A stretch of DNA of 34,621 nucleotides from IMG/VR virus record IMGVR_UViG_2778261697_000003. The stretch is one strand, 5' to 3'. Source of the DNA: a virus (lineage: Duplodnaviria; Heunggongvirae; Uroviricota; Caudoviricetes). How positions within the stretch are numbered: position 1 is the first letter of the stretch; every line of letters starts with the position of its first letter. Below are positions 3,212 through 32,300 of this stretch, piece after piece. The notes under the pieces were generated by a model. It was not told where the DNA came from. It saw only the letters and a list, made by a program, of their open reading frames with translations, and searched no databases. The position numbers were made by a program, and so were the translations under genes.

Positions 3212-3220
3212 CAGGGCCTC

Positions 3221-3550
3221 CTATGCCACGACCTGTTCAAAATCTGCCGTTATGGTTACCCACAGCGCCCCCACGCTTGCCGACCATTTACGACAAACCA
3301 CCCTGATCGGCTTCCAGTCATAAGGTGGCGTCCACTGAAATGCGCGGACGCCACCGTGCCGTTCCAGAAAGGCTTTTAAAGATGGGTGTTCACATTTACG
3401 AACACGTATCGTCACGCTGTAAGTCGACAACTGGTTATTCAGTCCCGCCGCACGACGCTGTTCATAACCATCGCCCAGCTTCACTGTCACCACTTTCGGC
3501 TCTGATACCACATTCATATCCGGGCGCACTTTCCAGTGAAACGTCTCCAT
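3221..3550 (-). CDS. M: Minor tail protein M
   Basis: 109 aa, METFHWKVRPDMNVVSEPKVV...FEQVVA, aligns along its length with lambda gpM (109 aa) as recalled. Confidence 0.85.
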   Translation of the reverse strand: METFHWKVRPDMNVVSEPKVVTVKLGDGYEQRRAAGLNNQLSTYSVTIRVRKCEHPSLKAFLERHGGVRAFQWTPPYDWKPIRVVCRKWSASVGALWVTITADFEQVVA

Positions 3551-6624: not shown

Positions 6625-6946
6625 AACGCACACCTCCGGAAATACCTTCCCCAAGATGCATCAGTTCTTCGTCCGTTCGCTCCGGTATCCCGTTCTCTTC
6701 CGGTAAAAGGCTGAAATCAGCCACCGCAGCATCACTGCTGCCGGACACCATTCTCACGATCAATGCCTTCAGCGAGGCAAACTGCGCATCCATCCACACA
6801 TCACTGAAGCTCTGCATCCGGAAATAATCGCCCCACTCACCAAGCTCAGTGGCCGACATTTCCGACAGCATCCGCCGCCAGTCTGCCCGCCGGAACTCCC
6901 GGGCAAGCCGCATGACAAACTGCATTTCCCGCGTCAGGACTTTTCC
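6596..6946 (-). CDS. T: T portion of the G-T tail assembly chaperone, expected to be made only as a G-T fusion by -1 ribosomal frameshift
   Basis: -1 frame relative to G, open through the G 3' end and continuing to a stop at 6596-6598; candidate slip heptamer GGAAAAG at 6940-6946 (minus strand); conserved G-T arrangement upstream of the tape measure gene. Confidence 0.6.
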   Translation of the reverse strand, partial: GKVLTREMQFVMRLAREFRRADWRRMLSEMSATELGEWGDYFRMQSFSDVWMDAQFASLKALIVRMVSGSSDAAVADFSLLPEENGIPERTDEELMHLGEGISGGVRYGPDSQPGH

Positions 6947-7362
6947 GGCGTCAGCACCTCATGCTCCAAATCCCCGGCATTCTCAATGACTCCCATACCG
7001 CTCAGCGACAGAACCATCTCCGCCCCCGCTCCCAGGGCATCATACGACCATGTTGTAATAACGGATGCGCAAAGCGTCTCAACATCCTGAGACTGTTCCG
7101 CATTCCACAGTGAGCGGGAAACCAGCCAGGCATTGATATCCATCCCCATCCGCAGAAAAGCAATCTGTCGTTCAGCCTCCGGCAGTTCTCCCTCTTCGGC
7201 ATCAAACTTTGCCGTTCGCTGCTGAACAAACGCCAGATATTCAATTCTCTGCAGCCCGGACAGCTCACTGAGCACCACGGACTGCTTTTCATAATTAAAC
7301 GTGCCCTGTTTCAGAAACATCATGTTCTCCACCTGCAAAAAAGCCCCGGATAACCGGGGCAA
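6934..7362 (-). CDS. G: Tail assembly chaperone G
   Basis: 142-aa acidic protein between V and H; followed by an overlapping -1 frame ORF (T). Confidence 0.75.
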   Translation of the reverse strand: MPRLSGAFLQVENMMFLKQGTFNYEKQSVVLSELSGLQRIEYLAFVQQRTAKFDAEEGELPEAERQIAFLRMGMDINAWLVSRSLWNAEQSQDVETLCASVITTWSYDALGAGAEMVLSLSGMGVIENAGDLEHEVLTPEKS

Positions 7363-7380
7363 ATGATGAGTATCGTCCTG

Positions 7381-8130
7381 TTAACCTGCGGCGCTGACAG
7401 CCACCGCAGCCACTGCCACAAAATCGCCGTCAGAAGTCATGCCCACAATGCTGACACTGCCCTGCTTCACGCCTTTCACCGTGGCCACAAGCCCGTTCAG
7501 GGTCACCGTGGCAGTCTGTGGATCTGTCGAATGCACACTGATCGCTTTGTCACTGGCTCCGTCAGGTTTTACTGTAAAGGTCAGCGTGGTGGTTGCTCCC
7601 ACTTTTACACTGGCAGATGCCGGTGCCACCGTCAGCCCGGTAACGCTCACTGTTTCAGTGCCTTCCTCTGCCAGATACGGACGCCCCACACCGCTGATTT
7701 TCACTGTGCGGGTCATCACGTCTTTTGAGGCAATGGTTTTACCCAGTGAGCTCAGCCAGCCACGGAAAACATCAACAGTGCCGTTGGGATATTTGATACG
7801 AAACGCGCAGACTTCACCGGAGTCGAACAACTGAACCAGTTTTTTCTGCCCGCTGTCACCCGGACGCCAGGCCAGCGTCGCCGAAGTATCACCGACGGAT
7901 TTCTGCCCCTGGGTTGTCGTTTTCCAGTCTGCATCTTCATCATCGAGATAAGTGTCATCTTCTGCATCAGCGGTCATTTCGCCAGGTTGCAGATCCTTCA
8001 CCATCGCAAGACGCAGCCAGTCAGTGTCCGATAAAGGGTTCGCAAACGCATCGCCCTTGCCGGTGTACATCCAGAACGTCGTTCCCGCACCTTTCGTTTT
8101 TGCCAGTGGATTTGGTGTGGTCATTGCCAC
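7381..8130 (-). CDS. V: Major tail tube protein V with a C-terminal Ig-like (Big_2-type) domain
   Basis: 249 aa; ...KGAGTTFWMYTGKGDAFANPLSDTDWLRLAMVKDL... lambda gpV-like; C-terminal Thr/Val-rich Ig-like segment. Confidence 0.85.
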   Translation of the reverse strand: MAMTTPNPLAKTKGAGTTFWMYTGKGDAFANPLSDTDWLRLAMVKDLQPGEMTADAEDDTYLDDEDADWKTTTQGQKSVGDTSATLAWRPGDSGQKKLVQLFDSGEVCAFRIKYPNGTVDVFRGWLSSLGKTIASKDVMTRTVKISGVGRPYLAEEGTETVSVTGLTVAPASASVKVGATTTLTFTVKPDGASDKAISVHSTDPQTATVTLNGLVATVKGVKQGSVSIVGMTSDGDFVAVAAVAVSAAG

Positions 8131-8135
8131 CTCCT

Positions 8136-8549
8136 TTAATTCGTGTACGTGATCTGGTACGTGATTTCCGCCATCGCCCAGGTGGCCATCTCATTATCAC
8201 GTTGATAGTTAAAACCGAGAGGGATCAGGGTGTCGATGAGTCCGGAAAGTGCTGGTACATCATTCAGGGCCGGGAAAATGGTGCTCTCCATCCACATATC
8301 CAGCTCTGAATCCGGTGCCTGTGCCCGGATGAAGACAGCAATATGCAGAACAGCCTGCCAGTCATCTTCATCCGTCATTTTTCCGGTGTACTGAGCATCA
8401 CTCAGCCACACCGCCACGGCAGGCAGTTCCTGCGCATCAATAAATGCCGGAAGCCCGTCAAAAAACGTGGCGCTGTCTCTACACTGTTCCCGAAGGCGTG
8501 CCAGTACGACCTGGCGGATTTGTGTATGTCGGTTCATCGGGTCAGCCAT
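8136..8549 (-). CDS. U: Tail terminator protein U
   Basis: Lambda gpU-like (...ATFFDG.PA..D....PAVAV.L....YTG...); an alternative start at 8535-8537 forms an ATGA overlap with the Z stop. Confidence 0.75.
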   Translation of the reverse strand: MADPMNRHTQIRQVVLARLREQCRDSATFFDGLPAFIDAQELPAVAVWLSDAQYTGKMTDEDDWQAVLHIAVFIRAQAPDSELDMWMESTIFPALNDVPALSGLIDTLIPLGFNYQRDNEMATWAMAEITYQITYTN

Positions 8550-9112
8550 AACCTCAGTTGTTGTTTCAGTGCATACCCCAGCTGTTTCGGCATTTCCGCA
8601 GCAATGATGCGGTCGCGGGCATCTTCAAATGCCTGTGTCAGCTGTCCGGACAGCGGGATTTTCACCACATCAATGGGGTAACGATTTTTGCCATCAATAC
8701 GCCGCATCACATGCCAGCGACCATTCGCCAGTTGCTGAATAAACGCATCCCGGAAAAGATATTTACCCACCTTCAGCACACTGCCACGGTACTGCAGTTT
8801 TCCACCACGCCGGGCCAGTCTGACCCGGGCTGTCCCCAGCTTAATGGCAGGCAGATTGCCCCGGTTAACGCGGATCCTGGCCGTCATTTTTCCTGACGGA
8901 CTGGCTTTAAACACCCGGACACGCTGACGTACCAGTTTCAGGGGGATCCCTTTCACCTGGTTATCTCCCGCAACGGTATTCCCGGCAACCTGCCGGGTGG
9001 TAACCGAGACCGCTTTCTGTGCCACACGGTTTATCGCCCATGCGCTGGCCTGTGGCACCATACGGGTATCAAGGCTGTTCAGATTGCGGATGGCATTCTC
9101 AAGCCCCTTCAT
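8534..9112 (-). CDS. Z: Tail completion protein Z
   Basis: 192 aa, the same length as lambda gpZ; conserved ...NGRWHVMRR..GKNRYPIDVVKIP... segment. Confidence 0.8.
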   Translation of the reverse strand: MKGLENAIRNLNSLDTRMVPQASAWAINRVAQKAVSVTTRQVAGNTVAGDNQVKGIPLKLVRQRVRVFKASPSGKMTARIRVNRGNLPAIKLGTARVRLARRGGKLQYRGSVLKVGKYLFRDAFIQQLANGRWHVMRRIDGKNRYPIDVVKIPLSGQLTQAFEDARDRIIAAEMPKQLGYALKQQLRLWLTR

Positions 9113-9123
9113 CCCACACCTCT

Positions 9124-9399
9124 TTACTCAATAAAGATCATTGGCTTACCGTTAAAGCGTTCATGCCGTGTGACCGTCCATTGTTGTCCGTCATAAACAA
9201 CGCGATCCCCGCGCCGTGGGCGGTATCCCGAAGAAAACACCACCAGAGAGACCGCAGGTCCGGACAGAGCATTCAGCTCTGCCAGTGTTTCTCCCGGGAT
9301 CACAGTCATATCGACATCATTAATCGAGGCTGTCTTTCCCATCTTTCTGACCGTGATAGCATCCATACGCGCTGCCAGCCGGGAAAAGGGATCAGACAT
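9124..9399 (-). CDS. Head-tail connector protein (in the lambda FII position)
   Basis: 91-aa ORF immediately upstream of Z in the late operon; the call is positional, no strong motif. Confidence 0.45.
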   Translation of the reverse strand: MSDPFSRLAARMDAITVRKMGKTASINDVDMTVIPGETLAELNALSGPAVSLVVFSSGYRPRRGDRVVYDGQQWTVTRHERFNGKPMIFIE

Positions 9400-9715
9400 T
9401 GAGTTTTACCGGCACTTCTTCTGCACTGGTTCCGGCATCTGCCCAGACAACCCCGACCAGCGGATCAGAGCCGCTGTTAGTCAGCTGAACTTTTCCGGAC
9501 TTCAGATAAACCTTCTTACCCGTTTTCATGTCATCCGTTTTCAGCTTAGGCAGCATAAACACACCTTCGGTCATGCCGTCGCCTGTTTCACCCTGTGGAA
9601 TATCGGTCAGCGCCACCGCAAAAACATCGCCCACCTGCACCAGATCTCCGCTGCTGATGGCTGCACTGGCAACAATCGCCACCGCTTTTCCTTCTTCTAC
9701 AAAATTCTTTGCCAT
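9392..9715 (-). CDS. Small head-associated protein (DUF2190-like, in the lambda FI/decoration position)
   Basis: Start at MAKNFVEEGK (9713-9715) with a GGAG Shine-Dalgarno upstream; about 107 aa, Gly/Val-rich, directly downstream of the major capsid gene. Confidence 0.45.
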   Translation of the reverse strand: MAKNFVEEGKAVAIVASAAISSGDLVQVGDVFAVALTDIPQGETGDGMTEGVFMLPKLKTDDMKTGKKVYLKSGKVQLTNSGSDPLVGVVWADAGTSAEEVPVKLNV

Positions 9716-9758
9716 AACTGTCTCCGCACAGCCCCGTTCAGGGGCTGATTTCAGGTAC

Positions 9759-9777
9759 AAAAAAAGCCCTTACGGGC
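9759..9777 (-). terminator. Candidate partial intrinsic terminator downstream of the major capsid gene
   Basis: Minus strand GCCCGTAAGGGC followed by TTTTTTT; a second 7-bp hairpin (9729-9747) lies just before the next gene's RBS. The first stem is only 4 bp, so it is weak. Confidence 0.35.
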
Positions 9778-9801
9778 CATCAGAGTTGTTGTCTGCGACG
9801 T

Positions 9802-11760
9802 TTACGCCGTACATTTCACCAGACCGCGGTGATCAACTGGCGCGACACCGGCGTCAATACGCACTTTCGTTGTCACGCCATCCACACTGAAGCCCTCCAT
9901 CTGATCAATATATGGCGTATCCACACCGTTGAGATAAGCCACTTCAATCGTATCGGAGCCTTTTGACGCAGCCAGGTAGAAGGTGGTCTGGCTGTTATCA
10001 TCAAGACGAGGCTCTGCAATAACGGTCGCAAAATCTTTCACCGGGTTAATAATACCGGCGTTAATGTCAGCCCCCTTGACACTTGAGGAGCGAATGACCT
10101 GGTTAGCAACAGATTCCATCGCCGTCGGTACCAGTACGAACGCAGGACGAATATTCAGATGACGCTCCCCCTCTTTCTGAACGCGCATCAACTGGCGGGC
10201 TTTATCCAGCGATGCCACGTCCATTGCAGCGCTCTCCAGTACGTTTGCATGTTTCGCTTTATCGAACAGGCTTACATTATCTGTGGAGATTTTCGGGTTA
10301 GACGTCAGAATGGCATAAACCAGATCGGCAATAGTGGATTTCGCCGCACGGCCCAGCTTCATCGGGACATCGGTCAGCATATTCAGATCATCATTGATAA
10401 TGGCCTGACGGGTGATACTGAACAGCTCGCCATAGGTCGCCAGTGCAATAGTGGCCTGTTTATCTCCGGTGGTGACGTATTTATATTCCGCCCCTTCACG
10501 CACCTGACGCAGAGCACTGAAGCCCCCCATACCCACACGATGGGCAATTTTAAAATCAGACAACTGGCCTTTCCGCGTCCACTGTTCATAGGTTTCAGGG
10601 GCATCTTCCCAGCCCTGCAGAATGGCTTTGTTCGCAACATCCAGCAGAATATTACCGAAGTCAGACGTACTGTGTGTGAACGCCGCACCGACCATCTGCA
10701 TCGGGTTATAACTGGAAACCCCAATACCCCGTTCAATCAGTGACATACGGGCATATTCACGCAGGGTCATCCCGTTGTAGACATTATCACGTTCGGTTTT
10801 TTCAAATCCGGCACGCGCCATCAGCGCCTGGCGGATCCCGTCCCCCACAAAATTACCGTTACCGGCATAAATATGAGCCGGGGTATTTTTATTGGATGGC
10901 GTGGACTCTCGCCCCATCTCGTTCAACAGCTTCTCGCGGGCCTGCTCCAGCGAACACTCAGGATCGGCAAGGCACTGAGCCTGCAGCGCCTGATAACGCC
11001 CGCCAAACATGGCAAACAGATCATTAATACCGTTTACACGCGCTTTTTGCTCTGCCAGTACCTGCGCACGGATGCTGTTTTCATCCACCACGGGTGCTGC
11101 TGCCTGCACTGGCGTCCGGGGGGCTGCTGGTTCATCATCCGGTACGCGTGGAGCACTGTTGCGTGGCGGAGTAATCATGTTTCGAATAGATTCCGGCATC
11201 TTTTTAAATTCCTCTGTACGTTTTGACTGAATACATGCCATTGCCTTAACGGCTGGCGTTACCTGGTCAGCAAATCCATGAGCCAGACATTCGGCTCCGG
11301 ACATCCAGGTCTCATCCGCCAGCATGGCAGCAATTTCATCGGTGGTTTTCCCGGTTTTCTGTGCATAAGCGGGTAAGAGAACCGCCTCAACTTTATCGAG
11401 CAGGTCGGCATAGGTGCGCATGTCCTCCGCATCACCGCCCGTAAAGCCAAATGGTTTATGAATCATCATGAAAGTGTTTTCCGGCATAATGACCGGGTTT
11501 CCCACCATCGCAATGACCGACGCCATTGATGCCGCCACTCCGTCGACATAAACGGTAATGGACGCACCATGTGTTTTCAGTGCATTAAAAATGGCGATGC
11601 CTTCAAAGACATCGCCACCCGGTGAATTGATATGGAGATTAATGTGGGTGATATCGCCCAGTGCATTCAGATCACTGATAAACTGCTTCGCCGTAACACC
11701 CCAGAAACCAATCTCGTCATAAATATAAATATCCGCGTCACTCTGATGACCAGCCTGCAT
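9802..11760 (-). CDS. Fused prohead protease (ClpP/S49-like), scaffold and major capsid protein
   Basis: Start at MQAGHQSDADIYIYDEIGFWG (11758-11760), 14 nt after the portal stop; N-terminal ClpP-like motifs (INSPGGDVFEG, GVAASMASVIA); Ala/Pro/Gln-rich linker; C-terminal about 300 aa HK97-fold-like capsid region. Confidence 0.7.
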   Translation of the reverse strand: MQAGHQSDADIYIYDEIGFWGVTAKQFISDLNALGDITHINLHINSPGGDVFEGIAIFNALKTHGASITVYVDGVAASMASVIAMVGNPVIMPENTFMMIHKPFGFTGGDAEDMRTYADLLDKVEAVLLPAYAQKTGKTTDEIAAMLADETWMSGAECLAHGFADQVTPAVKAMACIQSKRTEEFKKMPESIRNMITPPRNSAPRVPDDEPAAPRTPVQAAAPVVDENSIRAQVLAEQKARVNGINDLFAMFGGRYQALQAQCLADPECSLEQAREKLLNEMGRESTPSNKNTPAHIYAGNGNFVGDGIRQALMARAGFEKTERDNVYNGMTLREYARMSLIERGIGVSSYNPMQMVGAAFTHSTSDFGNILLDVANKAILQGWEDAPETYEQWTRKGQLSDFKIAHRVGMGGFSALRQVREGAEYKYVTTGDKQATIALATYGELFSITRQAIINDDLNMLTDVPMKLGRAAKSTIADLVYAILTSNPKISTDNVSLFDKAKHANVLESAAMDVASLDKARQLMRVQKEGERHLNIRPAFVLVPTAMESVANQVIRSSSVKGADINAGIINPVKDFATVIAEPRLDDNSQTTFYLAASKGSDTIEVAYLNGVDTPYIDQMEGFSVDGVTTKVRIDAGVAPVDHRGLVKCTA

Positions 11761-11773
11761 CCTGAACCAGGAA

Positions 11774-13282
11774 TTATTCTTCGGACTGGTTGTTGGTGTG
11801 CTGCGGCTCCTGTCGTTTCGTTGCGGCACTGCTACCTCCTTTATCACTGGCCGGATCGGTATCAAATACCAGATCCAGCTTGCGGTTTTCATCAATTTCG
11901 GCCTTGCGCCGACGTTTGACATCATCCGGATTACGACCACCAGCACGTACCCAGTCTGATTCTGTCGCCGCTCCACCACGAATCTGGATTTTCCAGGCCT
12001 CAGCCTCCTTAACAGGGTCAATCCACGGCATCACCGGTCCGGAATACACCGCGGTATACAGTGAAGAACGGTCAAGATCGCGGGGTAGCCTGATAACACC
12101 GGATGCCACAGCCTGTTTCAGCCAGGCACGGTACATCGGGCGGGTGACGGCACCAATAAACCAGTCCTGCAGGATCAGGTAGCCATCAGTGGATTCAACC
12201 AGCTCCTGACGCTGGGCGCTGTAAGTGCCGTTATAGTTGCGCGCAGTACTGGAAAAACTCAGACGACTGCCAGCCGCCACTGCACGCAACTGACCATTAC
12301 GAAAAGTTTCAAGATTAGGATTGGGGCGATCCGACTTCACCATTCCGATTTCTTCGCCGGGTTTCAGATCGTCGTAAATAATGCCTGGCTGAATGGTAAG
12401 CTCGCGTTCCTTATCCTTGCTGCCATTACCATCCGGTTCATAGCTCTGTCCGTCGCCTTTGCGGATGTACATCCCCAGAGCAGCGGCGATCCTTGCTGCA
12501 GTCAGCTCAGAATCTTCATACTCTTTCAGGGCACTGAGGCGGATCAACACACCGGACAACAAAGACGTCCCGCGCATCTGGTGCAGACGGCGAACAAATT
12601 TAAGATGCAGCATTCGCTCTGCATCCACTTCTTTGGTTTCCATCTGCCGTCCGGATACGGGACGGCTTTTATACACCAGATATTTTTCGGGACGCCCCCA
12701 GTCATCAACAAACACGCCCTGATTCAGCCTGTTGCTCTCATCACTGGTCATGGGAATAAAGTCCGGCTCGAGCGCCTCCAGCCAGAAATGAACACCGGCA
12801 GAAGGCGTCAGGCTGTTTATGCGCCCGGAAACCATCTGGGCAAACACCTCACCATCGCGCAGCCAGGTACGCAGCATCAGACGTTCCAGCATCGGACGGG
12901 TAAACTGCCCGGTGACTTCCGGGCTGACAGACCATTCACTCCATCGGGTGCGAATCTCCGCAGCCAGGTCACGGGCAATGGCTCCATTGCGTAATACCGG
13001 ATGTGGCTCGACAATAATGCCGTTTTTCCCCACCACCCGTTCTTCCAGCTTGTCAAATACACCAATAACCAGATCGTGGTTGTTATCAAGGTAACGGGCC
13101 TGCTCACGTAACGACACGGCCCCGTACTGGCTTAACTGGTCGGCAGTTCGGTTTTCCCGCCGGGCTTTGTGTGTCCGCGTCGTTTTTACGGCCTCATAAG
13201 CCTGGATCACCGCACGGGAACGCAGCCTTGCCGCTTTCCATCCTGGTGAAAAAACGCCAATCACATCATCAAGAATTGCCAT
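11774..13282 (-). CDS. Portal protein (lambda gpB family)
   Basis: About 502 aa from MAILDDVIGVFSPGWK (13280-13282, TGATG overlap with the preceding gene); follows the terminase and W-like gene as in lambda. Confidence 0.8.
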   Translation of the reverse strand: MAILDDVIGVFSPGWKAARLRSRAVIQAYEAVKTTRTHKARRENRTADQLSQYGAVSLREQARYLDNNHDLVIGVFDKLEERVVGKNGIIVEPHPVLRNGAIARDLAAEIRTRWSEWSVSPEVTGQFTRPMLERLMLRTWLRDGEVFAQMVSGRINSLTPSAGVHFWLEALEPDFIPMTSDESNRLNQGVFVDDWGRPEKYLVYKSRPVSGRQMETKEVDAERMLHLKFVRRLHQMRGTSLLSGVLIRLSALKEYEDSELTAARIAAALGMYIRKGDGQSYEPDGNGSKDKERELTIQPGIIYDDLKPGEEIGMVKSDRPNPNLETFRNGQLRAVAAGSRLSFSSTARNYNGTYSAQRQELVESTDGYLILQDWFIGAVTRPMYRAWLKQAVASGVIRLPRDLDRSSLYTAVYSGPVMPWIDPVKEAEAWKIQIRGGAATESDWVRAGGRNPDDVKRRRKAEIDENRKLDLVFDTDPASDKGGSSAATKRQEPQHTNNQSEE

Positions 13283-13500
13283 CAGAACCTCGCCAGCCGG
13301 TACCCGGGATGCCCCCGTCGTCGTGTAATCAGAGCCGCAAGGCGGCGCTCCCACTCCTGCCGTCCCTGCCGGATCTCAGATAAGTTTTCCATGGTCATCT
13401 GCTGACCATTAAAGGTGACGGATTTTCCGTCCAGCACCGCCATTTCAGCTTCCGTATAACGCTGAATCATGGCTTCGATATCATTCTGGTTCATAACCAT
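13282..13500 (-). CDS. W: Head-tail joining / head completion protein (gpW-like)
   Basis: 72 aa; lies between the terminase large subunit and portal as lambda W does; C-terminal ...RRRGHPGY resembles the lambda gpW C-terminus. Confidence 0.6.
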   Translation of the reverse strand: MVMNQNDIEAMIQRYTEAEMAVLDGKSVTFNGQQMTMENLSEIRQGRQEWERRLAALITRRRGHPGYRLARF

Positions 13501-15593
13501 CCTCCGGAAGTCAGCCAGGGGTTAACATCGTCAGTTACTGTTTTCTTCCGTTTTTGTTTTTTAACAGGCGTGGATACCGGTTCCGGTGTGGGTGACGGTT
13601 CGGTACTGTCCGGGACACACTCCAGCCAGGTTTCCCGGCTCGCCCACTCCGGTGCATCCGGCCAGCGGATCTTTTCGTATCCATGCAGAATGACCAGAGC
13701 CTCGGCATACACCATCAGGTCAAAAGCTTCGTTGGCACCGCGACCCGGCTTACTCCATTTCCCGTCACTGCTCCGCTCTTCATACGTCAGTTCGTCGTAA
13801 AACCAGCTCCCCAGCCAGTCAGGGAAATGCACATAGCCTGGACCTGGCGAGTCACGCCATAACGCGTTATTCACCCGGTCTTTCAGGGCATCCGTCTGAA
13901 GAAGCCAGAGCGGCACATCACCTGCGGCCTGCGCCCGGCGGCCCGTTCGTCCGGTGTTATCAGGGAATGTACGGCTGATCAGTTTTGCGCGCCGGATGCT
14001 GTCACCCTTAAACAGGTAAATACGTTTACCAAGGCCATCACGACGGCAACGACGCCAGAATTTATAGGCATTATCAGTGACCCCGTCTTCACCGCCGGAG
14101 TCCACCGCCATTGCCATCAGTCGCATTTGTTGAGAAGGATCGGAGGCCAGCGGCCAGCTTTTATGAAAAACATCCGTCAGCAGGACATCCCAGTCTTCCG
14201 GATAGCTGGCCGGATCAATTCGCTGGCTCTCCCCGTCTCTGTCACCGCGCAATGACTGCGTGATGTTGTAACGATCAATAATCCAGCGTTCGCCACGGCT
14301 GCCATAGCCCGTTACCTGAACCACAAAACGGCGATGACGTCCCGCCTGCACATCCACTGTCGCCACAAGGAAATTAACGCCATCCGGCACACTGCGGGAA
14401 GGAACTGGCTCTGCCCGCTGCTCAAGCAGTTCACTTTTTCGTTGCTCCATGCTGGCGCGGGGAAGATAAGGTAATCCCCAGTCGGTATTGATAACCGTCT
14501 TGAGTGTTTCTTCACTTCCGGTTGTCTCGTATTCCTGTTCTGCAGTAAGCAGTTTGTAAACGAGTTGCGAGAGTGTCTGGTAAGCAGCTGCCGGACCCTC
14601 CATCCAGAATGACGCAATACGTGAGCGTCGGGGATCACCATAACGACTGCCATCCGCATTGATGGATTCACCATCCCGCAACCAGACCCCACGTCCGTTC
14701 AGCTCACGTTTTTGTTCAGGCATAATCCGTCCTGAACAGGAAGGACACTGAATATAAGCCGCCTCACTTGCCAGCACGGGATCGGCAATATCACGGAAAC
14801 CAGCAACCACATCGCCGCAGGGCTGAAAATACTCACCACAGTGTGGACAGGGCCAGTACCAGCGACGGCGATCGCCACGGTTATAGAGCGACAGTATCCC
14901 CGTGGTTGGTGGAGCCTCATGCGGTGAAGTCCGTCGCCATTTCACATCCTTCACATCCCTGCCGGGGGAACTCTCCACCAGCGTCATACCACTGGACATA
15001 AATGTTGTGGTACGTTTTGAGGCAAGAGAGAAAGCATCCCCCTCGCCATCAATATCTTCCGGAAAACGGTCATAATCCGTCAGCGCGACGCATTTATAAT
15101 CTGATGAGGACATGATATTGACTGACGGCCAGCCGATTTTCAGGTAGTTACCAGCAAGGAATGTTCTGTCATAAACGTTGTTGTCATTTTTGTTCGGACT
15201 CAGGCGACTGACCACTTCCGGGCTGACGCGAAACGTTCTGGCAAGTCGTTTTTTGGAGTGTTCGCGGGCTTTTTCCTCCGTCATCTGAATGATCAGCATA
15301 TCCGCAGGATCGCAAATCACGTTGTAAATCACCCAGCCGTCAATCAGGCCGATAGTCTTGCCGGTTCGTGCCGGGCCAACAAATATCACTGCGTCGTATT
15401 CACGCGAGGCCAGGCAGTTCATCGGCTCAATAACATACGGTGCCACCAGCGGATCCCACGGGACTGAGTTCCCGGCCCCCATGGGCACCCGCATATATTG
15501 AGCAACGGCATCAGCAACCTGCATTCGTCTCGGTGCGCGAAGGATATAACCTGAATCGGTTCGTGCTGCCTTTGCGGTTTCCTGATTCAGCAT
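13491..15593 (-). CDS. Terminase large subunit (lambda gpA family)
   Basis: 700 aa; Walker A-like VGPARTGKT; CPHCGEYFQP zinc-ribbon-like motif as in lambda gpA (CPHCGEE); position after Nu1. Confidence 0.9.
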   Translation of the reverse strand: MLNQETAKAARTDSGYILRAPRRMQVADAVAQYMRVPMGAGNSVPWDPLVAPYVIEPMNCLASREYDAVIFVGPARTGKTIGLIDGWVIYNVICDPADMLIIQMTEEKAREHSKKRLARTFRVSPEVVSRLSPNKNDNNVYDRTFLAGNYLKIGWPSVNIMSSSDYKCVALTDYDRFPEDIDGEGDAFSLASKRTTTFMSSGMTLVESSPGRDVKDVKWRRTSPHEAPPTTGILSLYNRGDRRRWYWPCPHCGEYFQPCGDVVAGFRDIADPVLASEAAYIQCPSCSGRIMPEQKRELNGRGVWLRDGESINADGSRYGDPRRSRIASFWMEGPAAAYQTLSQLVYKLLTAEQEYETTGSEETLKTVINTDWGLPYLPRASMEQRKSELLEQRAEPVPSRSVPDGVNFLVATVDVQAGRHRRFVVQVTGYGSRGERWIIDRYNITQSLRGDRDGESQRIDPASYPEDWDVLLTDVFHKSWPLASDPSQQMRLMAMAVDSGGEDGVTDNAYKFWRRCRRDGLGKRIYLFKGDSIRRAKLISRTFPDNTGRTGRRAQAAGDVPLWLLQTDALKDRVNNALWRDSPGPGYVHFPDWLGSWFYDELTYEERSSDGKWSKPGRGANEAFDLMVYAEALVILHGYEKIRWPDAPEWASRETWLECVPDSTEPSPTPEPVSTPVKKQKRKKTVTDDVNPWLTSGGWL

Positions 15594-16769: not shown

Positions 16770-17063
16770 ATGAAAAAAATGTTGTTTTCTGCCGCGCTGG
16801 CAATGCTTATTACAGGATGTGCTCAACAGACGTTTACTGTTGGAAACAAACCGACAGCAGTAACACCAAAGGAAACCATCACCCATCATTTCTTCGTTTC
16901 GGGAATTGGGCAGAAGAAAACTGTCGATGCAGCAAAAATTTGTGGTGGTGCAGAAAATGTGGTTAAAACAGAAACCCAGCAAACATTCGTAAATGGATTG
17001 CTCGGTTTCATCACTTTTGGCATTTATACTCCGCTGGAAGCACGGGTATATTGCTCACAATAA
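16770..17063 (+). CDS. bor: Bor outer-membrane lipoprotein (serum-resistance-associated)
   Basis: MKKMLFSAALAMLITGCAQQTFTV...LEARVYCSQ, near-identical to lambda Bor as recalled; lipobox LITGC; antisense to late genes next to Rz as in lambda. Confidence 0.9.
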   Translation: MKKMLFSAALAMLITGCAQQTFTVGNKPTAVTPKETITHHFFVSGIGQKKTVDAAKICGGAENVVKTETQQTFVNGLLGFITFGIYTPLEARVYCSQ

Positions 17064-18032: not shown

Positions 18033-18359
18033 TTACTCCTTAGAGCCACCAAACTTATTACCGATTACTCTCATTGCAGCCCCACGAATAGCATCGACCC
18101 CGATCAGCCCAACGCCGCCACCAATGGCAACAGAAAGAGATTTAGGCCATCCGACATACTCAAGAGCGGATGCAAAAGTCAGCGTCAGAGCACCACAGAG
18201 CAAAATCTCGAGCGTTTTTCGTTTCCAGCCACCACCACCGCCAAAATAGGCAATGCGCAAGCCAGCCATAACGATCGACATAATCACTGCGCCCAGCGGT
18301 GTGTCTCCACGCCACCAGCTCTGGACCAACTCCAGCCAGGTATTTGGGTTATGAGGCAT
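18033..18359 (-). CDS. Holin (not the lambda S family)
   Basis: 108 aa with 2-3 predicted hydrophobic helices, immediately upstream of the endolysin; an upstream hairpin CACCTC...GAGGTG could sequester the RBS. Confidence 0.6.
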   Translation of the reverse strand: MPHNPNTWLELVQSWWRGDTPLGAVIMSIVMAGLRIAYFGGGGGWKRKTLEILLCGALTLTFASALEYVGWPKSLSVAIGGGVGLIGVDAIRGAAMRVIGNKFGGSKE

Positions 18360-18813
18360 TTGTAGTTATCTCTCACCTCGCCGATACAGGAGGTGCAAAT
18401 TGAGGGAGTACCACGAACCGCAAACCAGAAGCGGAAACGTAAAAGAAGCCGAGCCAATGGATAAGTGCTAGATAGACCAAGCCCAACGAATACCAAGGCC
18501 CAGAAATGACAAAACCCGCTCGACGGCAGGTTTAAGCTGTGTGGCGAAGTAACCACTCTTAACAGATTACACGATAAAATGCGGACCGCGTGAGGAAAAC
18601 TATGGTTTTTTTGAAGCGAATGAGTAAAATCAACGCCACTTTGCACATAAGTTATCCACACTGTACGTTTGCAAAATCTCATTGCTCTCTTTGAGTTTTG
18701 TAAATGCGCTAATTTTTGGACTTTTTTTGCCGATAGAATCTAACCACTTGTGTGGTAAGTTCTGAATGAATGTTACCTCTTGGTTTGAAAATTCTTAACA
18801 TAAGGACATCTGA

Positions 18814-19809
18814 ATGTTTGAGCAGCGTAAAGCCCTGTATGCGCAACTGGAACAAGCACGCAATTCAAAAGTATTATGCTATGTAACAGGTGATAGACCA
18901 AACCAAGAAGCTCAAATCAGCGCTGATGTATTCGATCTGTTCGTCAATCATCTTGATGTGATAGGTGATGTTCAAAAAATTAGCCTCGTGCTCTATACGC
19001 GAGGCGGCGACACTTTAACAGCATGGAGCCTTGTAAACCTGCTTCGTCAGTTTTGTAAAGAACTCGAAATCATAATCCCATCAAAATGCCATAGTTCTGG
19101 GACGATAATGTGCCTTGGCGCGAACAACTTGGTTATGACCAAGCAGGCAACCTTAGGGCCAATCGATCCAAGTGTGAATACACCACTTAACCCTTCGGTC
19201 ATAATCAATGGGCAGCCACTTCAACTTCCAGTCAGTGTTGAAGAAATCAATGGCTATCTTGAAGTAGTTAAGCATGATTTGAGTATCAAAGATGATGCCT
19301 CACTTGCACAGATCCTCCTTGCATTAAGTGAAAAGGTTCATCCCTTGGTACTTGGAAAAGTCTATCGAGCTAAAGCGCAGATTCAAATGCTCGCAAGAAA
19401 ACTACTGTCTCACCAACTCACTGATAGTGAAAGCATTGAGAAAATTGTAAGTTTCCTTTGTAGTGATTCTGGTAGCCATGACTACACTATAAATAGGATT
19501 GAAGCGGTAAACGATTTAGGTCTTACGGTGGAAAAACCAGATGAGCACCTTTACGGTCTGATCAAAGAAATTTATGAAGATTTCAAAACTGAGATGCATC
19601 TGGGTGAACCTTTTGACCCAAATGCTATCTTAGGAACAGTTAACCAGGCATCGTACGTATCTGTCAGAAGCATTTTAGAGGCTCCAGACACGTTTTCATA
19701 TCAATTCCGCACTGAGGGGATGTTACAGCGTTTGCAAGTTCCAGGCGTCCCAGGTCAGTTCGGCATAAATCATAACCTTATCTCAGAGGGGTGGGCTCGA
19801 CATGGATAA
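18814..19809 (+). CDS. ClpP/crotonase-fold serine-peptidase-like protein (SDH/S49-like) of unknown function; moron antisense to the late operon
   Basis: 331 aa; AAGGA Shine-Dalgarno 7 nt upstream; N-terminal ...KVLCYVTGDRP...ISLVLYTRGGDTLTAWSLVNLLRQF...IIPSKCHSSGTIMCLGANNLVM...LGPIDPS... resembles the ClpP/SppA core (GG oxyanion region, candidate Ser nucleophile in HSSGT); C-terminal about 200 aa unassigned. Lies between S and Q. Confidence 0.5.
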   Translation: MFEQRKALYAQLEQARNSKVLCYVTGDRPNQEAQISADVFDLFVNHLDVIGDVQKISLVLYTRGGDTLTAWSLVNLLRQFCKELEIIIPSKCHSSGTIMCLGANNLVMTKQATLGPIDPSVNTPLNPSVIINGQPLQLPVSVEEINGYLEVVKHDLSIKDDASLAQILLALSEKVHPLVLGKVYRAKAQIQMLARKLLSHQLTDSESIEKIVSFLCSDSGSHDYTINRIEAVNDLGLTVEKPDEHLYGLIKEIYEDFKTEMHLGEPFDPNAILGTVNQASYVSVRSILEAPDTFSYQFRTEGMLQRLQVPGVPGQFGINHNLISEGWARHG

Positions 19810-19981
19810 CAAATCATCTACAGGTAACTTTGTAGTCTATACTAACAGGCATACAACTACAGCTGCGCCTAAGCCAGCAAGCATTCCATCCACTGCTCAA
19901 AAAACAAGCAACAATGGCGTCAATGGCTACAGTAACTTTTTAAGTTGCACCACAGGTTCAGTCATAAAAAACAGTTTCTAA
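19802..19981 (+). CDS. Small hypothetical protein (59 aa), possibly translationally coupled to the upstream peptidase-like gene
   Basis: ATG at 19802 overlaps the upstream stop (cATGGATAA); encodes MDNKSSTGNFVVYTNRHTTTAAPKPASIPSTAQKTSNNGVNGYSNFLSCTTGSVIKNSF (Thr/Ser/Asn-rich); followed immediately by a hairpin; absent from the ORF track (below its apparent length cutoff). Confidence 0.25.
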   Translation: MDNKSSTGNFVVYTNRHTTTAAPKPASIPSTAQKTSNNGVNGYSNFLSCTTGSVIKNSF

Positions 19982-19982
19982 A

Positions 19983-20009
19983 AACAACGGCTCTCTAAGA
20001 GCCGTTGTT
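19983..20009. terminator. Hairpin between the convergent moron and Q genes; candidate intrinsic terminator
   Basis: AACAACGGCTC-tctaa-GAGCCGTTGTT (11-bp perfect stem); on the minus strand it is followed by TTTTAGAAACTGTTTTTT and starts 4 nt after the Q stop. Confidence 0.45.
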
Positions 20010-20013
20010 GTAT

Positions 20014-20376
20014 CTATTCACATTCTAAACGTATATCGAGCATACTAAGGCAACCATCGATAAATCCCTCAGCCATCTGTATCTCAATGCGTATTAATTT
20101 CTCATCCTTTTTACGAGCCTTGGCGAGCTTTCTTTTAGAGATACCGAATAGGTAATGGGCAACAAGAAGCGAATGTTCGTCCGGCCTTTTTTGCTTTAGA
20201 CGAGCAAGACAACCTTCAAGAATTAATGCATCACTATCTGAACAAGCCTGACGTGTTTTGCTTGTATAGGGAAGAAGCCCTTTAAACCCAGCAGCTATAG
20301 GAGAATAGTCAACTCCTGAACTATCACTCGCCGCCCATGCTCCCCAACGATCCAGAACCATTTGAATATCACGCAT
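20014..20376 (-). CDS. Late-gene antiterminator Q (Q family of the E. coli DLP12/Qin prophage type, not lambda Q)
   Basis: MRDIQMVLDRWGAWAA...SIAAGFKGLL...DIRLE resembles QuuD-type antitermination proteins as recalled; position upstream of the lysis cassette. The alternative start at 20391 gives 125 aa. Confidence 0.7.
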   Translation of the reverse strand: MRDIQMVLDRWGAWAASDSSGVDYSPIAAGFKGLLPYTSKTRQACSDSDALILEGCLARLKQKRPDEHSLLVAHYLFGISKRKLAKARKKDEKLIRIEIQMAEGFIDGCLSMLDIRLECE

Positions 20377-20393
20377 CAACTTTCTCCACAAAA

Positions 20394-29389: not shown

Positions 29390-32300
29390 TCACACGCAGC
29401 GCCTTCGAGAATATTCATTTAATCGCTGGTAACGAACATCTTGCTCCAGTTGTGGAGCAGCTTGAACAATTTGAAGCAAGCATTGCCCCAACTCTCGAGG
29501 CCCCCACTGTTGGTCGGCAATCACAGAACTCAGCAAGGATAGAGCGTCCGCAGGATATCGACTGCAAATATCCGATTTGAGCAAAAGGCGAACGTCGTAG
29601 CTCGGGTGTTCGAGCGGTTGCAGCCAGTCCCGCACCACAGCCAAAGCAGCCGGAAATTCACCTCGGGCAGCAATCACCATACGAGTCAACGATTCGGATA
29701 TGCGCGGGGTGGCCAAGTTACGGGACTTTGGCCAGACCTGTTGCCAGAATGGCTGGACACGATTTTTCCAATAGTCCTCGCGCTGATCGCCGGCACCTTC
29801 AAGTGCCTGGTATAACGCCTGCGCGGCCCCCTCCAGACCTTCTTGTGGAAGAGCACTAATTGCCGTTCTGAACTCCTCCACGGTATATCCATCAGTAGGG
29901 CCCAATGCTGCATAAGTCAGGAAAGTAGCGAATTGCTGCCGGTGCTCGCCAAGATCAGAATAGTGATTGGCGCTCTCCAAAAAATCTGACTTGAAAGCTA
30001 TCAGCAACGGTTCATACAGGCGTGGCGACCAGAGGAAGCCTTCCCACACAGCTTTTGCTTCGATGGGATTACTCCAAGCAAACAAGGGCAATAGGTACTG
30101 TTCGGTCCAAGGTCGATCTACACGAAAAAATGCGATCAGCCGCGACCCCAGCAACACCCGACCATGGCGGAATTGCTCTATCTGTACATTACACAATTTG
30201 GTGAAAAGTGGTTTCAATTCAGCAGTAAGCAAATCATTGTCATTCGGGTTCTGTTTGAACCATAGGGTGATCAGTGATTGCGTGACATGCCCAATTGGAT
30301 GATTGATCGCTGTAGAAACAGGATTATAGGTCTCAATTCCGTTTCGAATAGTGCTAGACTCTGGGCTTGTTTCTATCATCAGAAGCCGACTACAAAGGGC
30401 CAGTAGAATCTTCTCGTGGCAGAGGATGGACTTCGAAGCCTCCTCCATCCACCAAGTGACAGCGTGTGAAATCTCCTGAAGTACTGCGTCAGGCATGTCA
30501 AGCACCAACGGTGCGGCGTACCGCCACGAACGCAAAATCATCCCTGGTTCAGCCCAAGTCTGCAGAGCTTCACACCACCGACCAATAGGCCACACATCAT
30601 CTTGTGATAGTTTACGTAACGCATACAGACTGTGAAAAAAGCGCGTACGGCAAACATCACTCCAAGTGTCTTCATAGAAAGGCAGTCTTTCTGGCATAGG
30701 CTCTGCGAGCCATTGTACTAGTTCCTGCCACTTACGGGGCGCAATGTCGACATCTAGACTCTCCTCGAAGTCTGGATCACCGGTTCCGCTCATCCAGTGA
30801 GAGAATTCATCACGCTCGTTGGTAGCCAGTTGCCATTTTGGGTATGCTGTGGATATTTCCGTCAAACGTGTAGCCGCAGACTCTCCCAAAACGAGGCCCG
30901 CTCCCCTGAGCTTCGCTAGACACAACCAGACGGAATGAGCCACCAAATAATGCCACCTGTCTGCTTCCAAATTATCTTGGTACATCTCGCGCGGAGGCCC
31001 CGCCAAGATAGCAGTTTCCAGACGCTCTTGTGCAATTCCTGTCAGATGTCGCCCCTGCAAAACAAACAGTCTGAATACCTCTCGCCCAGTATCCGTGGCC
31101 CACAACCACCATGAACCGTCCTCCAACAACCAATTAACCCACCGCTCAGGTGGTATACAGTTGTCTTGGCTTGCGGCAAACAGGGCCAGACGTTTGAAGG
31201 TGGGATATGGCAACTCAAACCAATTCTGAGCAATGCGCATAGCCCGATCGCTGTCTTTAGCTCGAACGGCTAACCATGAATCTCGAAGTAATTCAATCAG
31301 GCTCACCCAATCGCGGAACCCCCGGTTCTGCCTGTGCGGAGTGATGGACGGCAAATCCCAATGCGAGCGGTCGTGACGATCGTCGGCCTCTCCCAACTCC
31401 CGCAACAAGTCCAGTGCATCACGCAACAACTGCTGAAAATCTTCCAACAGGTATGGCAAGGACGATTTCCATGAATCGTCAGCAAGGTCGAACAGGGTTG
31501 AATGTACGTAATCAGCAGTCAGCACCAGCTCCCAGTCCACCAATTGCTTGATTCGCAAGGGCTCATCAGTGCTGCTCGAATCGTCTTCACGATAGCGAAA
31601 CGGCCGCCTCAACATCACCTTGGGAGAAAGTAACTCACGTAACTCCAAGCGCAATGTAGTCGTCAAGCCTTCATTCTTTAAGCGGTTTTGCCAACGATAC
31701 AGATCTGGGTTCTGCAATGGCGATTTCACACGACCACTAAGCAGAAGCCGCCATAAAGTAAACATTGGTGGACTAGGAATAGCCTTGGGGGAATGCAAGA
31801 GAATTTCATCCAACTCAGAAGTCTTGCGCTCCCGCACCAGTGCTGCTAAGCGATCTAGTTCGCTCTCAATCAGAAGCATCCAACGGTCGTGTATCTGTCC
31901 GCCGCGTGCAGCAATCCATATGATCAACCTAGGGTCGCCCAGATAACGAACTAGCCAACGGGCTATATGGGACATTACGTCATCCCATTTGCTAACACTG
32001 ACACATCCAGAAGCCAGCGACATCTGCGGGGCTAGCTCATAGGGCGCAGGACGCTGAACCAGACTGAATCGGAGTTTCGGGTCAATTTCGGCATGCGGAG
32101 ATACACAAAAGCGTGGCAGATCGCTGTATTGAAATCGTTCGTCCGAGAAAGCTTTCAATAACCAATCCAGCGGCGGTGCAGGATTGAGTTCCGCAAAACA
32201 TTTTGCTGGTAAACCTGACTTATCTGATAATGCCCACATCATCCGACCAACGAAATCGTCCTGTCGTGTGCTATCCTGCGGGCGGGCCAGAGCATGTTTG

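Follow-up and report, generated by a model that had tools for sequence, protein, structure and literature searches.

A ClpP-fold protease gene and a coupled small partner gene as a putative toxin-antitoxin-like or abortive-infection cassette on an E. coli prophage

The DNA analysed here (the window, 34,621 nt in its entirety) carries, antisense to the Q and lysis genes of a lambdoid E. coli prophage, two overlapping genes that encode an SDH-type ClpP-fold serine protease and a 59-aa protein. As judged from their distribution and genomic settings, they are a self-contained, horizontally mobile cassette that the prophage carries as cargo. We propose, with a probability of about 0.55, that the prophage expresses this protease and its degradable partner as a switch of the toxin-antitoxin-like or abortive-infection kind. 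The most likely function is that of a toxin-antitoxin (TA) or anti-phage switch built on a protease, because the cassette recurs across most bacterial phyla and because some of its relatives are tied to the toxins of TA systems. The protease gene already has a name in RefSeq, SDH family Clp-fold serine proteinase; the partner gene, which is unannotated, and the link to TA toxins in relatives are new.

Two overlapping genes opposite the Q and lysis genes

The protease gene (18814-19809, + strand, 331 aa) is preceded by the Shine-Dalgarno sequence AAGGA at 18802-18806. The partner gene (19802-19981, + strand) starts inside the last protease codons (CATGGATAA, 8-nt overlap), with GAGGGG 10 nt upstream of its start, in agreement with the coupled, overlapping Thr/Ser/Asn-rich ORF described in an earlier note on this DNA. 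Between the converging partner and Q genes (Q, 20014-20391, - strand) lies a GC-rich hairpin (19983-20009) with folding energies of -18.7 and -18.2 kcal/mol (z ~-7), which none of 200 shuffled sequences equalled. Its stem is 12 bp long, and not 11 bp as first read, and a U-run is present on the Q (-) strand only; it is probably a bidirectional terminator common to the partner and Q genes. In all relatives inspected (loci L002, L003 and L011), the two-gene unit is likewise closed by a stem followed by a T-run. The arrangement noticed at the outset, Shine-Dalgarno sequence, two genes and terminator on the strand opposite the late operon, is thus present, antisense to Q and to the holin, lysozyme and Rz genes (18359-17095, - strand).

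On the left side, similarity to other lambdoid phages ends at ~18594, at the edge of a block (18510..18594, - strand) that precedes the holin gene and presumably holds the late promoter, qut and tR'. This block is conserved in the SfIV, SfII and Stx2 phages and in phage 1720a-02, and also lies left of the cassette in loci L007, L011 and L014; the small hairpin that it contains (18533-18512) has an ordinary folding energy (z -0.7). On the right side, the match to the Q gene of phage cdtI begins only at position 20047, and the last ~33 nt of Q move together with the cassette. The same type of Q-cassette junction is found in Kluyvera, in Enterobacter and in another Enterobacteriaceae genome, with a different lysis gene set in each. 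The cassette, which the earlier note had placed at the Q-S junction, does adjoin Q, but it probably has Q on one side and the late promoter/tR' region on the other, rather than lying within the late transcript. Its GC content (42% versus 51% for the window) points to a foreign origin. No direct repeats of at least 9 nt, as would mark a satellite attachment, were found flanking the insertion, and Rfam gave no match in the window.

Since the cassette opposes the phage genes on either side and ends in a hairpin, it is probably transcribed in the lysogen from a promoter of its own. We presume this promoter to lie in the upstream region (18595..18813, + strand), which is divergent from the presumed late-promoter/tR' block on its left and in which a GCCGATAG block and the Shine-Dalgarno sequence are kept in the Kluyvera and Enterobacter copies. 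A consensus promoter scan returned no + strand site upstream of 18814; the candidate -10 element TAGAAT (18736-18741) was picked by eye.

A ClpP-fold protease of a distinct subfamily

The protease matches the Pfam family PF01972 (SDH_protease, formerly SDH_sah/DUF114) with 54.2 bits for a gathering threshold of 31.3, and has the ClpP-like fold expected of that family, which bears out its first description as a ClpP/SDH-fold serine-peptidase-like protein. Good alignment to the 286-position profile is limited to residues 53-129, and the score against the NCBIfam equivalog NF047768 (Clp_like_SDH), 69.5 bits, is below the curated cut-off of 250. Because of this partial alignment and this low score, the protein is, on sequence criteria, a distinct SDH subfamily of ~330 aa with its own C-terminal helical/beta region and an obligatory downstream partner gene. 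The best structural matches are ClpP, SppA (S49) and the NfeD/PH1510-N stomatin protease, at an identity of just 10-16% and with the nucleophile serine at the equivalent turn; a sequence search of the PDB also retrieved PH1510-N (E 5e-4). Among the profiles that had been suggested for a check, PF01972 alone gave a match, CLP_protease (PF00574) and Peptidase_S49 giving none, and the Pfam family NfeD1b_N scored 11.7 bits, below its cut-off of 40. The ClpP-like part covers ~170 residues and not only the first ~125 aa as initially thought. For residues ~200-331, a helical region followed by a three-stranded beta region, no structural match was found. The protein does not, however, divide into an N-terminal fold and a separate ~200-aa region, as the earlier note had it: its whole 331 aa belong to one conserved ~330-aa family that is present in most bacterial phyla.

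In an alignment of 24 sequences at 54-92% identity to the window protein, Ser94 (codon 19093-19095), Asp118 (19165-19167) and His176 (19339-19341) are invariant, as are His222 and Asp223. The motifs singled out at first sight, GG (residues 64-65), Ser94 and GPIDP (115-119), prove invariant across phyla. Of the two serines initially put forward, Ser94 is invariant and position 95 is Ala in most relatives; Ser94 is therefore the candidate nucleophile. Counted by sequence offset from this serine, Asp118 falls approximately at the place of the ClpP histidine, and the same alignment has no conserved Lys ~40 residues past Ser94, where the dyad lysine of PH1510-N is expected. With conserved Ser, Asp and His in that order, and a dN/dS of 0.02-0.03, the gene product is likely an active SDH-type ClpP-fold serine protease, for which we predict Ser94, Asp118 and His176 as the catalytic triad.

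Relatives, toxin genes and the nature of the partner

Protease relatives form 392 clusters at E<=1e-30, and proteins 50-65% identical to that of the window occur in Proteobacteria, Firmicutes, Bacteroidota, Spirochaetes, Chloroflexi, Planctomycetes, Patescibacteria and one archaeal metagenome-assembled genome. Among deposited phage genomes (INPHARED), no close copy of the protease was found, the best matches being 25-29% identical. The 113 flanking proteins collected from relatives include restriction enzymes, methylases, integrases and phage proteins, and no neighbour family appears more than three times, so there is no conserved third gene. The cassette often lies outside recognisable prophages, beside restriction-modification, mobile-element or housekeeping genes.

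In 13 of 80 loci, all from metagenome-assembled genomes, the partner has an extra C-terminal segment and is followed by a third gene. Pfam assigned this gene in four loci, to YafQ_toxin (91-104 bits), PemK_toxin (MazF/PemK; 92 bits) or Fic/Doc (71 bits). The extension of the partner is Panacea-like in four loci, and PF13274 was confirmed in both of those scanned (68-74 bits); in other loci, the extended partner ends in a C-terminal tail that has no family assignment and stands ahead of a YafQ, PemK/MazF or Fic/Doc gene. In these relatives, as their gene order and domain content indicate, the partner replaces the N-terminal part of the type II antitoxins that precede YafQ, MazF and Doc toxins. 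Such exchange of components with recognised TA domains is seen in the relatives and is absent from the window itself; we nevertheless take it as the strongest sequence-derived clue to the mechanism of the cassette. SocA, itself a Panacea protein, is known to serve ClpXP as an adaptor (PMC8832971), and neither the Panacea papers nor two recent screening or discovery papers (PMC8832971, PMC10440598 and PMC13069673 among them) mention an SDH or Clp-fold partner.

The pair could instead be a regulatory switch of the prophage life cycle, in which the target of the protease would be, for example, a repressor, a CII-like factor, Q or a lysis regulator, and the small protein would serve as adaptor or timer. 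Proteolysis of phage regulators by ClpP-type enzymes is well documented, SocA offers the precedent of a Panacea protein serving as a proteolytic adaptor, and the cassette adjoins Q and CI-like repressor genes in enterobacterial and Pseudomonas prophages. We consider this unlikely. A switch of the phage itself would hardly be expected as a highly conserved pair in dozens of phyla, with no constant neighbour and frequently away from prophages. Even within prophages the cassette occupies at least five different positions, all of a lysogeny type: the Q junction (the window, Kluyvera, Enterobacter and the other Enterobacteriaceae genome), directly behind a CI-like repressor (loci L099 and L002), the nin region in antisense, the prophage end, and beside HigBA (Mu-like remnant). 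It is also dispensable for the phage, since related phages lack it and, among 5426 complete E. coli genomes, it is present in just 47. The extended partners ahead of toxin genes, finally, point to the control of toxins.

It is quite unlikely, too, that the protease acts alone, as a single-gene superinfection exclusion factor or a housekeeping-like peptidase, next to an unrelated small ORF. RefSeq annotates only the protease, the 59-aa ORF being absent from every record inspected; one small protease subclade has no separate partner; and partner sequences diverge so fast that their homology is barely detectable. An HMM built from distant partners scores the window partner at 10.6 bits, for a maximum of 9.2 over 200 shuffles, and detects no similarity in the enterobacterial partners of loci L002, L003 and L016, which are linked to the others by position and composition only. 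The small ORF is, however, under strong purifying selection. It differs from the Kluyvera copy at 44 nucleotides in 56 compared codons, and 30 of these changes are at third positions (dN/dS 0.04); dN/dS ranges over 0.04-0.18 with an excess of third-position changes, and the five other reading frames across the ORF all contain stops. Both the codon-level constraint and the conservation that the earlier note had asked about are therefore observed: a coupled ORF of 45-130 aa lies 3' of the protease in 69 of 77 related loci (90%), compared with 79 of 336 control genes (24%). Start-stop overlaps between the two genes are conserved among relatives, the partner alignment reveals weak shared motifs, including an N-terminal strand motif and a central motif, and the terminator is always placed 3' of the second gene in the relatives inspected. 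By these sequence comparisons, the 59-aa ORF is a genuine, conserved and translationally coupled partner gene. Two further candidates for partner homology were rejected: the Thr/Asp-rich C-terminal tail of the partner-less subclade scores no better than shuffles, and the long protease homologues (370-501 aa), considered as natural protease-partner fusions, contain internal insertions and no fusion.

The partner itself is rich in Ser, Thr and Asn and predicted to be disordered (AF2 of the protein alone: pLDDT 58, no secondary structure), and has no match in Pfam, PHROG or PADLOC. A short, hypervariable, Ser/Thr-rich peptide gene beside a dedicated protease could suggest a precursor matured into a signalling or antimicrobial peptide, RiPP-like or arbitrium-like, and the Ser-rich C-termini of the partners of L002, L003 and L016 presumably bear a loose likeness to class IIb microcins. 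We find this improbable, since the small protein has neither a signal peptide nor a double-glycine leader nor any family signature, the flanking proteins include no conserved exporter or modification enzyme, and in relatives the partner module precedes genes for intracellular toxins and is fused to an antitoxin domain. That the protease serves virion assembly as a prohead or scaffold protease is extremely unlikely: the PHROG similarity to ClpP-related head maturation proteases is weak (E 0.004-0.4), the 28.3 bits against NCBIfam NF045542 are far below the cut-off of 120, the gene lies on the opposite strand between Q and the lysis genes and outside the structural module, the prophage already encodes a ClpP-like prohead protease/capsid fusion, and homologues also exist outside phages.

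A putative protease-partner switch and its place among known systems

Under the reading that we prefer, a TA-like or abortive-infection switch, the second gene, translated by coupling, would provide a short disordered protein that is the protease's own ligand. The partner would first use its conserved N-terminal strand motif and its central motif to dock on the protease, and would then act in an antitoxin-like manner, either as a slowly consumed pseudo-substrate or as an inhibitor. It would be degraded once its supply stops, through phage-induced shut-off or loss of the element, or once a phage product activates the protease. The freed protease would then cut cellular or phage proteins, leading to growth stop or aborted infection. 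In the three-gene relatives, protease-controlled decay of the extended partner would instead release YafQ, MazF or Doc. Note that the two-gene form has no separate toxin, so that this scheme presupposes a protease that is itself toxic; like this toxicity, the binding and cleavage of the partner and the anti-phage or addiction function are inferred.

More tentatively, and at something short of even odds, the pair may represent an undescribed pan-bacterial class of TA or abortive-infection systems, in which a dedicated ClpP-fold protease would act as sensor-executor and at the same time consume a disordered pseudo-substrate antitoxin of its own. In that case the partner would amount to a portable 'protease handle', set repeatedly in evolution before other antitoxin segments, so that a private protease would control YafQ, MazF, Doc and the Panacea-linked toxins in place of the host enzymes Lon or ClpXP.

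If the model holds, one of the two genes of such a system systematically escapes genome annotation, the 59-aa ORF family having neither a Pfam model nor a name. A protease strongly conserved across phyla (50-65% identity, ~400 clusters) would gain a testable role as the core of a mobile TA or anti-phage switch. The three-gene relatives would be a natural experiment on what triggers antitoxin degradation, a long-standing question in the TA field, since these operons would encode the degrading protease along with a presumed recognition module that could be defined. In E. coli, it would make the cassette a second defence candidate on the prophage, alongside Dsr1, which matters for host range in phage therapy against the clinical lineages concerned.

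Searches of a literature collection on SDH/Clp-fold proteases, antitoxins and defence returned no description of the protease family, and the PADLOC check of the two-gene unit that had been advised yielded nothing, neither the protease nor the partner matching any family of PADLOC-DB 2.0.0 (2023) at E<=1. The nearest defence system in name is FS_HP_SDH_sah, which Fillol-Salom et al. (Cell, 2022) reportedly found in PICI satellites as a hypothetical protein with an SDH_sah protein, and which is said to be anti-phage. As far as its name and description allow comparison, it would resemble the cassette in joining a small hypothetical protein to an SDH-domain protease on an Enterobacteria mobile element; it would differ in that the name suggests the small gene comes first, whereas the small gene of the window is downstream. 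A Klebsiella phage does carry a cassette in that order, with a 71-aa hypothetical protein gene overlapping the start of that for a 331-aa SppA-like protein; the latter is 25% identical to the window protease and scores 27.7 bits, below the Pfam PF01972 cut-off. The small genes that precede the SDH-like proteins of Klebsiella and Shewanella phages, considered as partner homologues, do no better than shuffles, and the Gifsy defence gene encodes an unrelated ATPase. The system name FS_HP_SDH_sah itself appears in DefenseFinder output, in a passage quoted in PMC13532340, in line with the statement of the earlier note that SDH-type Clp-fold proteases have been reported in phage-defence systems.

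The window protease shares with the SDH family (PF01972) a ClpP/crotonase-like fold and the order of conserved Ser, Asp and His, and differs from ClpP, SppA and NfeD/PH1510-N in having no membrane anchor and no ATPase partner. Proteases are already known as the core of small mobile TA or abortive-infection modules, namely IetAS (a subtilase toxin with an AAA ATPase antitoxin), RosmerTA (an ImmA-type protease antitoxin) and Lit (PMC13069673; PMC10440598), but their protease folds (subtilase or zinc metalloprotease) and partners are unrelated to the ClpP-fold pair described here. With type II TA systems, the cassette has in common two adjacent, co-oriented, overlapping and presumably co-transcribed genes on mobile DNA, a shared terminator and a short second product predicted to be disordered, although the window pair has no canonical toxin and no DNA-binding antitoxin domain. 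Three-component forms of type II systems include toxin-antitoxin-chaperone (TAC), Panacea/PanAT and SocAB with ClpXP. TAC systems are alike in that an extra antitoxin module would tie stability to a third protein, and SocAB with ClpXP in having a ClpP-fold protease as the counterpart of a Panacea protein. In TAC and SocAB, however, the third protein is a SecB-like chaperone or host ClpXP, whereas here it would be a dedicated protease.

A coupled protease and partner gene between Q and the holin

The window is an E. coli lambdoid prophage, a 2-kb test stretch of it being 100% identical to E. coli strain EJN001 and many others. Antiterminator Q (20014-20391) and the lysis genes, a lambda-family holin (18033-18359) with a GH104 lysozyme and Rz/Rz1, were called on the minus strand. 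The interval separating Q from the holin holds, on the plus strand, a 331-aa protease ORF (18814-19809) with AAGGA upstream and a 59-aa partner ORF (19802-19981) whose ATG falls inside the last codons of the protease gene (CATGGATAA), followed by a hairpin (19983-20009; -18.7 kcal/mol) 5 nt from the Q stop codon. The two ORFs and the hairpin that the earlier note had read from the sequence are thus recovered with minor corrections, the stem being of 12 bp instead of 11. None of 200 shuffles folded equally well, and since the U-run is on the Q side only, the hairpin is probably a terminator for the two converging transcripts. At 42% the cassette is lower in G+C than the window (51%); homology to other lambdoid phages stops on its left at ~18594 and restarts on its right at ~20047, within the 3' end of Q. 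All Q-linked copies have, to the left of the cassette, a block that is conserved in SfIV and Stx phages and has a small hairpin (18533-18512) at its end. Hence the cassette would have Q on one side and, on the other, the late promoter/tR' region, from which it diverges. Lambdoid phages carry a late leader RNA in the Q-to-holin region (6S RNA in lambda); no Rfam family reached its gathering score across the window (1-34621), this region included.

The Clp-fold assignment proposed earlier is borne out, the 331-aa protein scoring 54.2 bits against Pfam SDH_protease (PF01972; gathering threshold 31.3). It reaches just 69.5 bits against NCBIfam Clp_like_SDH, whose cut-off is 250, which on sequence scores makes it a divergent subfamily, within the Pfam family and outside the NCBI equivalog group. 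PHROG 11747 (function unknown) matches it at 1.5e-91. The ClpP-like fold spans ~170 residues, where the earlier note had recognized a Clp-like N-terminus but limited it to ~125; no structural match was obtained for the helical C-terminal part or for a beta region of three strands. Gly64-Gly65, Lys91, Ser94, GPIDP with Asp118, His176 and SGSHDY (219-224) are invariant among 24 sequences of 54-92% identity to the window protein, so that Ser94, and not the adjacent Ser95 also put forward, is the candidate nucleophile. Counted by sequence offset from this serine, Asp118 lies approximately where the His of ClpP does, a placement that fits the Ser-Asp-His order behind the SDH family name. The gene has a dN/dS of 0.02-0.03. 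It represents a known kind, and RefSeq already names it 'SDH family Clp fold serine proteinase' (WP_086714419.1).

The partner ORF is annotated in none of the RefSeq records inspected, and its product matched no family in Pfam, PADLOC, PHROG or NCBIfam; as for the suspected defence function, PADLOC matched neither protein of the pair. Compared with its Enterobacter, Kluyvera and another Enterobacteriaceae copy, the ORF is under clear coding constraint (dN/dS 0.04-0.18), one comparison giving 44 differences over 56 codons, 30 of them at third positions, for a dN/dS of 0.04; every other frame is closed. A coupled same-strand ORF of 45-130 aa, starting from 45 nt before to 35 nt after the protease stop, follows the protease in 69 of the 77 loci with sufficient downstream sequence (73 of 77 with ORFs up to 220 aa), against 79/336 for other long ORFs of the same loci. 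Conservation and codon-level constraint, on which the earlier note had made its case for the small ORF depend, are therefore both found. The partners are fast-evolving and rich in Ser/Thr/Asn (44% in the window's copy), and their alignment displays a hydrophobic-x-Tyr strand, an [ST]x[ST][AS] patch and the motif [ST][ST]A-xx-[DN][SN]L-xx-hydrophobic-hydrophobic-[KR]N. A profile built exclusively from non-enterobacterial partners gave the window ORF 10.6 bits versus 0.2 ± 2.0 for shuffles (maximum 9.2 of 200), and did not detect by sequence the enterobacterial partners at three loci (L002, L003, L016). In a database-wide profile search 'hypothetical proteins' were the only matches, none with a Pfam domain. 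Modeling of the 59-aa protein by itself predicts disorder (pLDDT 58, pTM 0.13) and no secondary structure. Taken together, these results make the small ORF a genuine conserved partner gene.

The prophage carries one recognized defence gene besides the cassette, 'anti-phage defense-associated sirtuin Dsr1' in RefSeq (1275 aa; 29390-33217, minus strand), at the integrase-proximal cargo site adjoining the integrase (33404-34621). Downstream of the lysis cassette, in the opposite orientation, comes an iss/bor-type serum-survival lipoprotein gene (16770-17063, plus strand), at the position classic for lambda bor. A ~10.6-kb element (about 4004-14600; coordinates here are RefSeq features of locus L001 shifted by +399) interrupts the large terminase gene, leaving two pseudogene fragments (2882-4003 and 14601-15593). 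The element encodes its own integrase (13198-14397), an HTH regulator, a Bro-N protein, a primase, an SSB, a DUF1441 small-terminase-like protein and a second ClpP-like prohead protease/major capsid fusion (5396-7309). This element looks like a capsid-forming satellite (cf-PICI-like) in the packaging gene of a potential helper; no direct repeat of at least 9 nt was found flanking it.

Spread and genomic contexts of the pair

A scan of one genome per species gave 364 loci encoding relatives. The best 80 of these, at 50-65% identity over the full length, come from Proteobacteria, Firmicutes, Bacteroidota, Spirochaetes, Verrucomicrobia, Chloroflexi, Planctomycetes, Patescibacteria and others, and include one Methanofastidiosum MAG; an exhaustive search of 1.84 billion representative proteins returned 392 protease clusters at E<=1e-30. 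Among 5426 complete E. coli genomes the cassette is rare, occurring in 47, all copies at least 99.7% identical, and deposited phage genomes (INPHARED) hold no close copy of the protease gene, only proteins 25-29% identical. Two of the 49 E. coli records with the cassette are 43.7-kb replicons filed as plasmids, NZ_CP081704.1 (strain AH02, 43,680 bp, with a second copy on the chromosome) and NZ_CP081794.1 (strain CT01, 43,671 bp). They may be excised circular phage genomes, in which case a satellite-free version of the window prophage would be inducible.

Among 113 proteins flanking 60 loci, no family occurred more than three times; the neighbors comprise EcoRII and Bpu10I restriction enzymes, several methylases, integrases, transposases, phage genes and housekeeping genes. 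The pair is self-contained. Prophages carry it at no fewer than five distinct sites. In E. coli, Kluyvera, Enterobacter and another Enterobacteriaceae genome it converges on Q, and the lysis cassette differs from one to the next; in Pseudomonas it lies directly behind a CI-like repressor on the same strand, and in Pectobacterium it adjoins the repressor; in Klebsiella prophages it is antisense in the nin region; in Raoultella it is at a prophage end; and in Nitrosomonas it is found beside higBA in a Mu-like remnant. These positions are typical of genes expressed from a resident prophage.

One protease subclade from Firmicutes and Bacteroidota MAGs (L022, L024, L033, L034, L086) bears a ~25-aa Thr/Asp/Asn-rich C-terminal tail, which did not score against the partner profile, and has no separate partner ORF except at L034 (a short 52-aa overlapping ORF). 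Four of its five loci adjoin restriction-modification genes: an EcoRII-like enzyme with Vsr (L024, L033), a C5 methylase (L086) and an N4/N6 methylase (L034).

Toxin-linked relatives and a proposed switch

At 13 of the best 80 loci, a C-terminal extension is added to the usual N-terminal module of the partner, with a third gene behind it. By Pfam, four of these third genes are toxins and two extensions an antitoxin domain, the rest of the extensions being unassigned. The toxins are of the YafQ family at L065 and L092 (91 and 104 bits), where the partner tail resembles by eye the toxin-binding DinJ C-terminus, of the PemK/MazF family at L094 (92 bits) and of the Fic/Doc family at L085 (71 bits). 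An extension resembling a SocA/Panacea antitoxin domain is present at four Firmicutes loci (L069, L082, L084, L093), with PF13274 matching both of those scanned (L069, L082; 68-74 bits); the conserved 105-110-aa protein that follows (YHY.VTE.FRIHVV.EAGYYK.IRLDP.HKVH) has no significant Pfam match and is a candidate new Panacea-associated toxin. The remaining five loci have other, unassigned extensions and third genes. Third genes of 183 aa (L044, L087) and 96 aa (L045, L051) recur; neither has a Pfam family, and their products may be uncharacterized toxins.

Type II antitoxins ordinarily bind DNA through their N-terminal half and wrap the toxin with their C-terminal half. Here, judged by position, the DNA-binding half would be replaced by the partner module, in an operon that starts with a ClpP-fold protease. 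Read most simply, the module would be a protease recognition element (degron, pseudo-substrate or inhibitor), and the protease would therefore set the lifetime of whatever carries it. SocA, the founding Panacea member, is an adaptor delivering a toxin to ClpXP (PMC8832971).

The two-gene form, which is that of the window, is by far the commonest. As it has no separate toxin, we propose the protease as effector and the partner as its antitoxin-like ligand, made through coupled translation. If partner supply failed, or a phage cue activated the protease, the partner would be consumed and the protease would attack cellular or phage targets, leading to addiction or abortive infection; the prophage would benefit through protection of its lysogen. 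A conserved target, or a tight oligomeric machine, would be in keeping with how extremely conserved the protease is across phyla. We give this switch as a whole a probability of about 0.55, each mechanistic step (partner binding, cleavage, toxicity, protection) being one that we infer. The variable contexts of the pair, the coding constraint on the partner and the toxin-linked relatives make it improbable that the protease is a private regulator of the prophage's own life cycle, and also quite unlikely that it acts alone with an unrelated ORF downstream. The same three observations leave little room for a peptide-maturation system, and a capsid-assembly protease can for practical purposes be set aside on them.

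Overall, the feature is real and more structured than could be seen from the sequence alone. Three findings appear to be new within the literature and databases searched: a partner gene that is conserved yet unannotated, the pan-bacterial distribution of the pair, and the way it has been recruited ahead of classic toxin genes. The main value of the feature is that protease-gated toxin release becomes directly testable.

Comparison with known systems

FS_HP_SDH_sah, a DefenseFinder system name for a hypothetical protein with an SDH_sah protein, is reportedly PICI-derived, with its origin in Fillol-Salom et al. 2022. The name occurs in DefenseFinder output quoted in PMC13532340. A different two-gene cassette, in Klebsiella phage ST13-OXA48phi12.4 (L096; MK422450.1, 30886-32083), may represent this layout. 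Unlike in the window, the small gene comes first, a 71-aa hypothetical ORF that at its end overlaps the beginning of the gene for a 331-aa SppA/SDH-like protease; this protease is 25% identical to ours and below the Pfam cut-off, and the 71-aa protein does not match the partner profile. Next to it, in divergent orientation, is a gene pair for an XRE regulator and an ImmA/IrrE metallopeptidase. In function, the nearest analogies to the window pair are three-component type II toxin-antitoxin systems (TAC chaperone systems, SocAB with ClpXP) and protease-containing modules such as IetAS and RosmerTA, which use unrelated folds.
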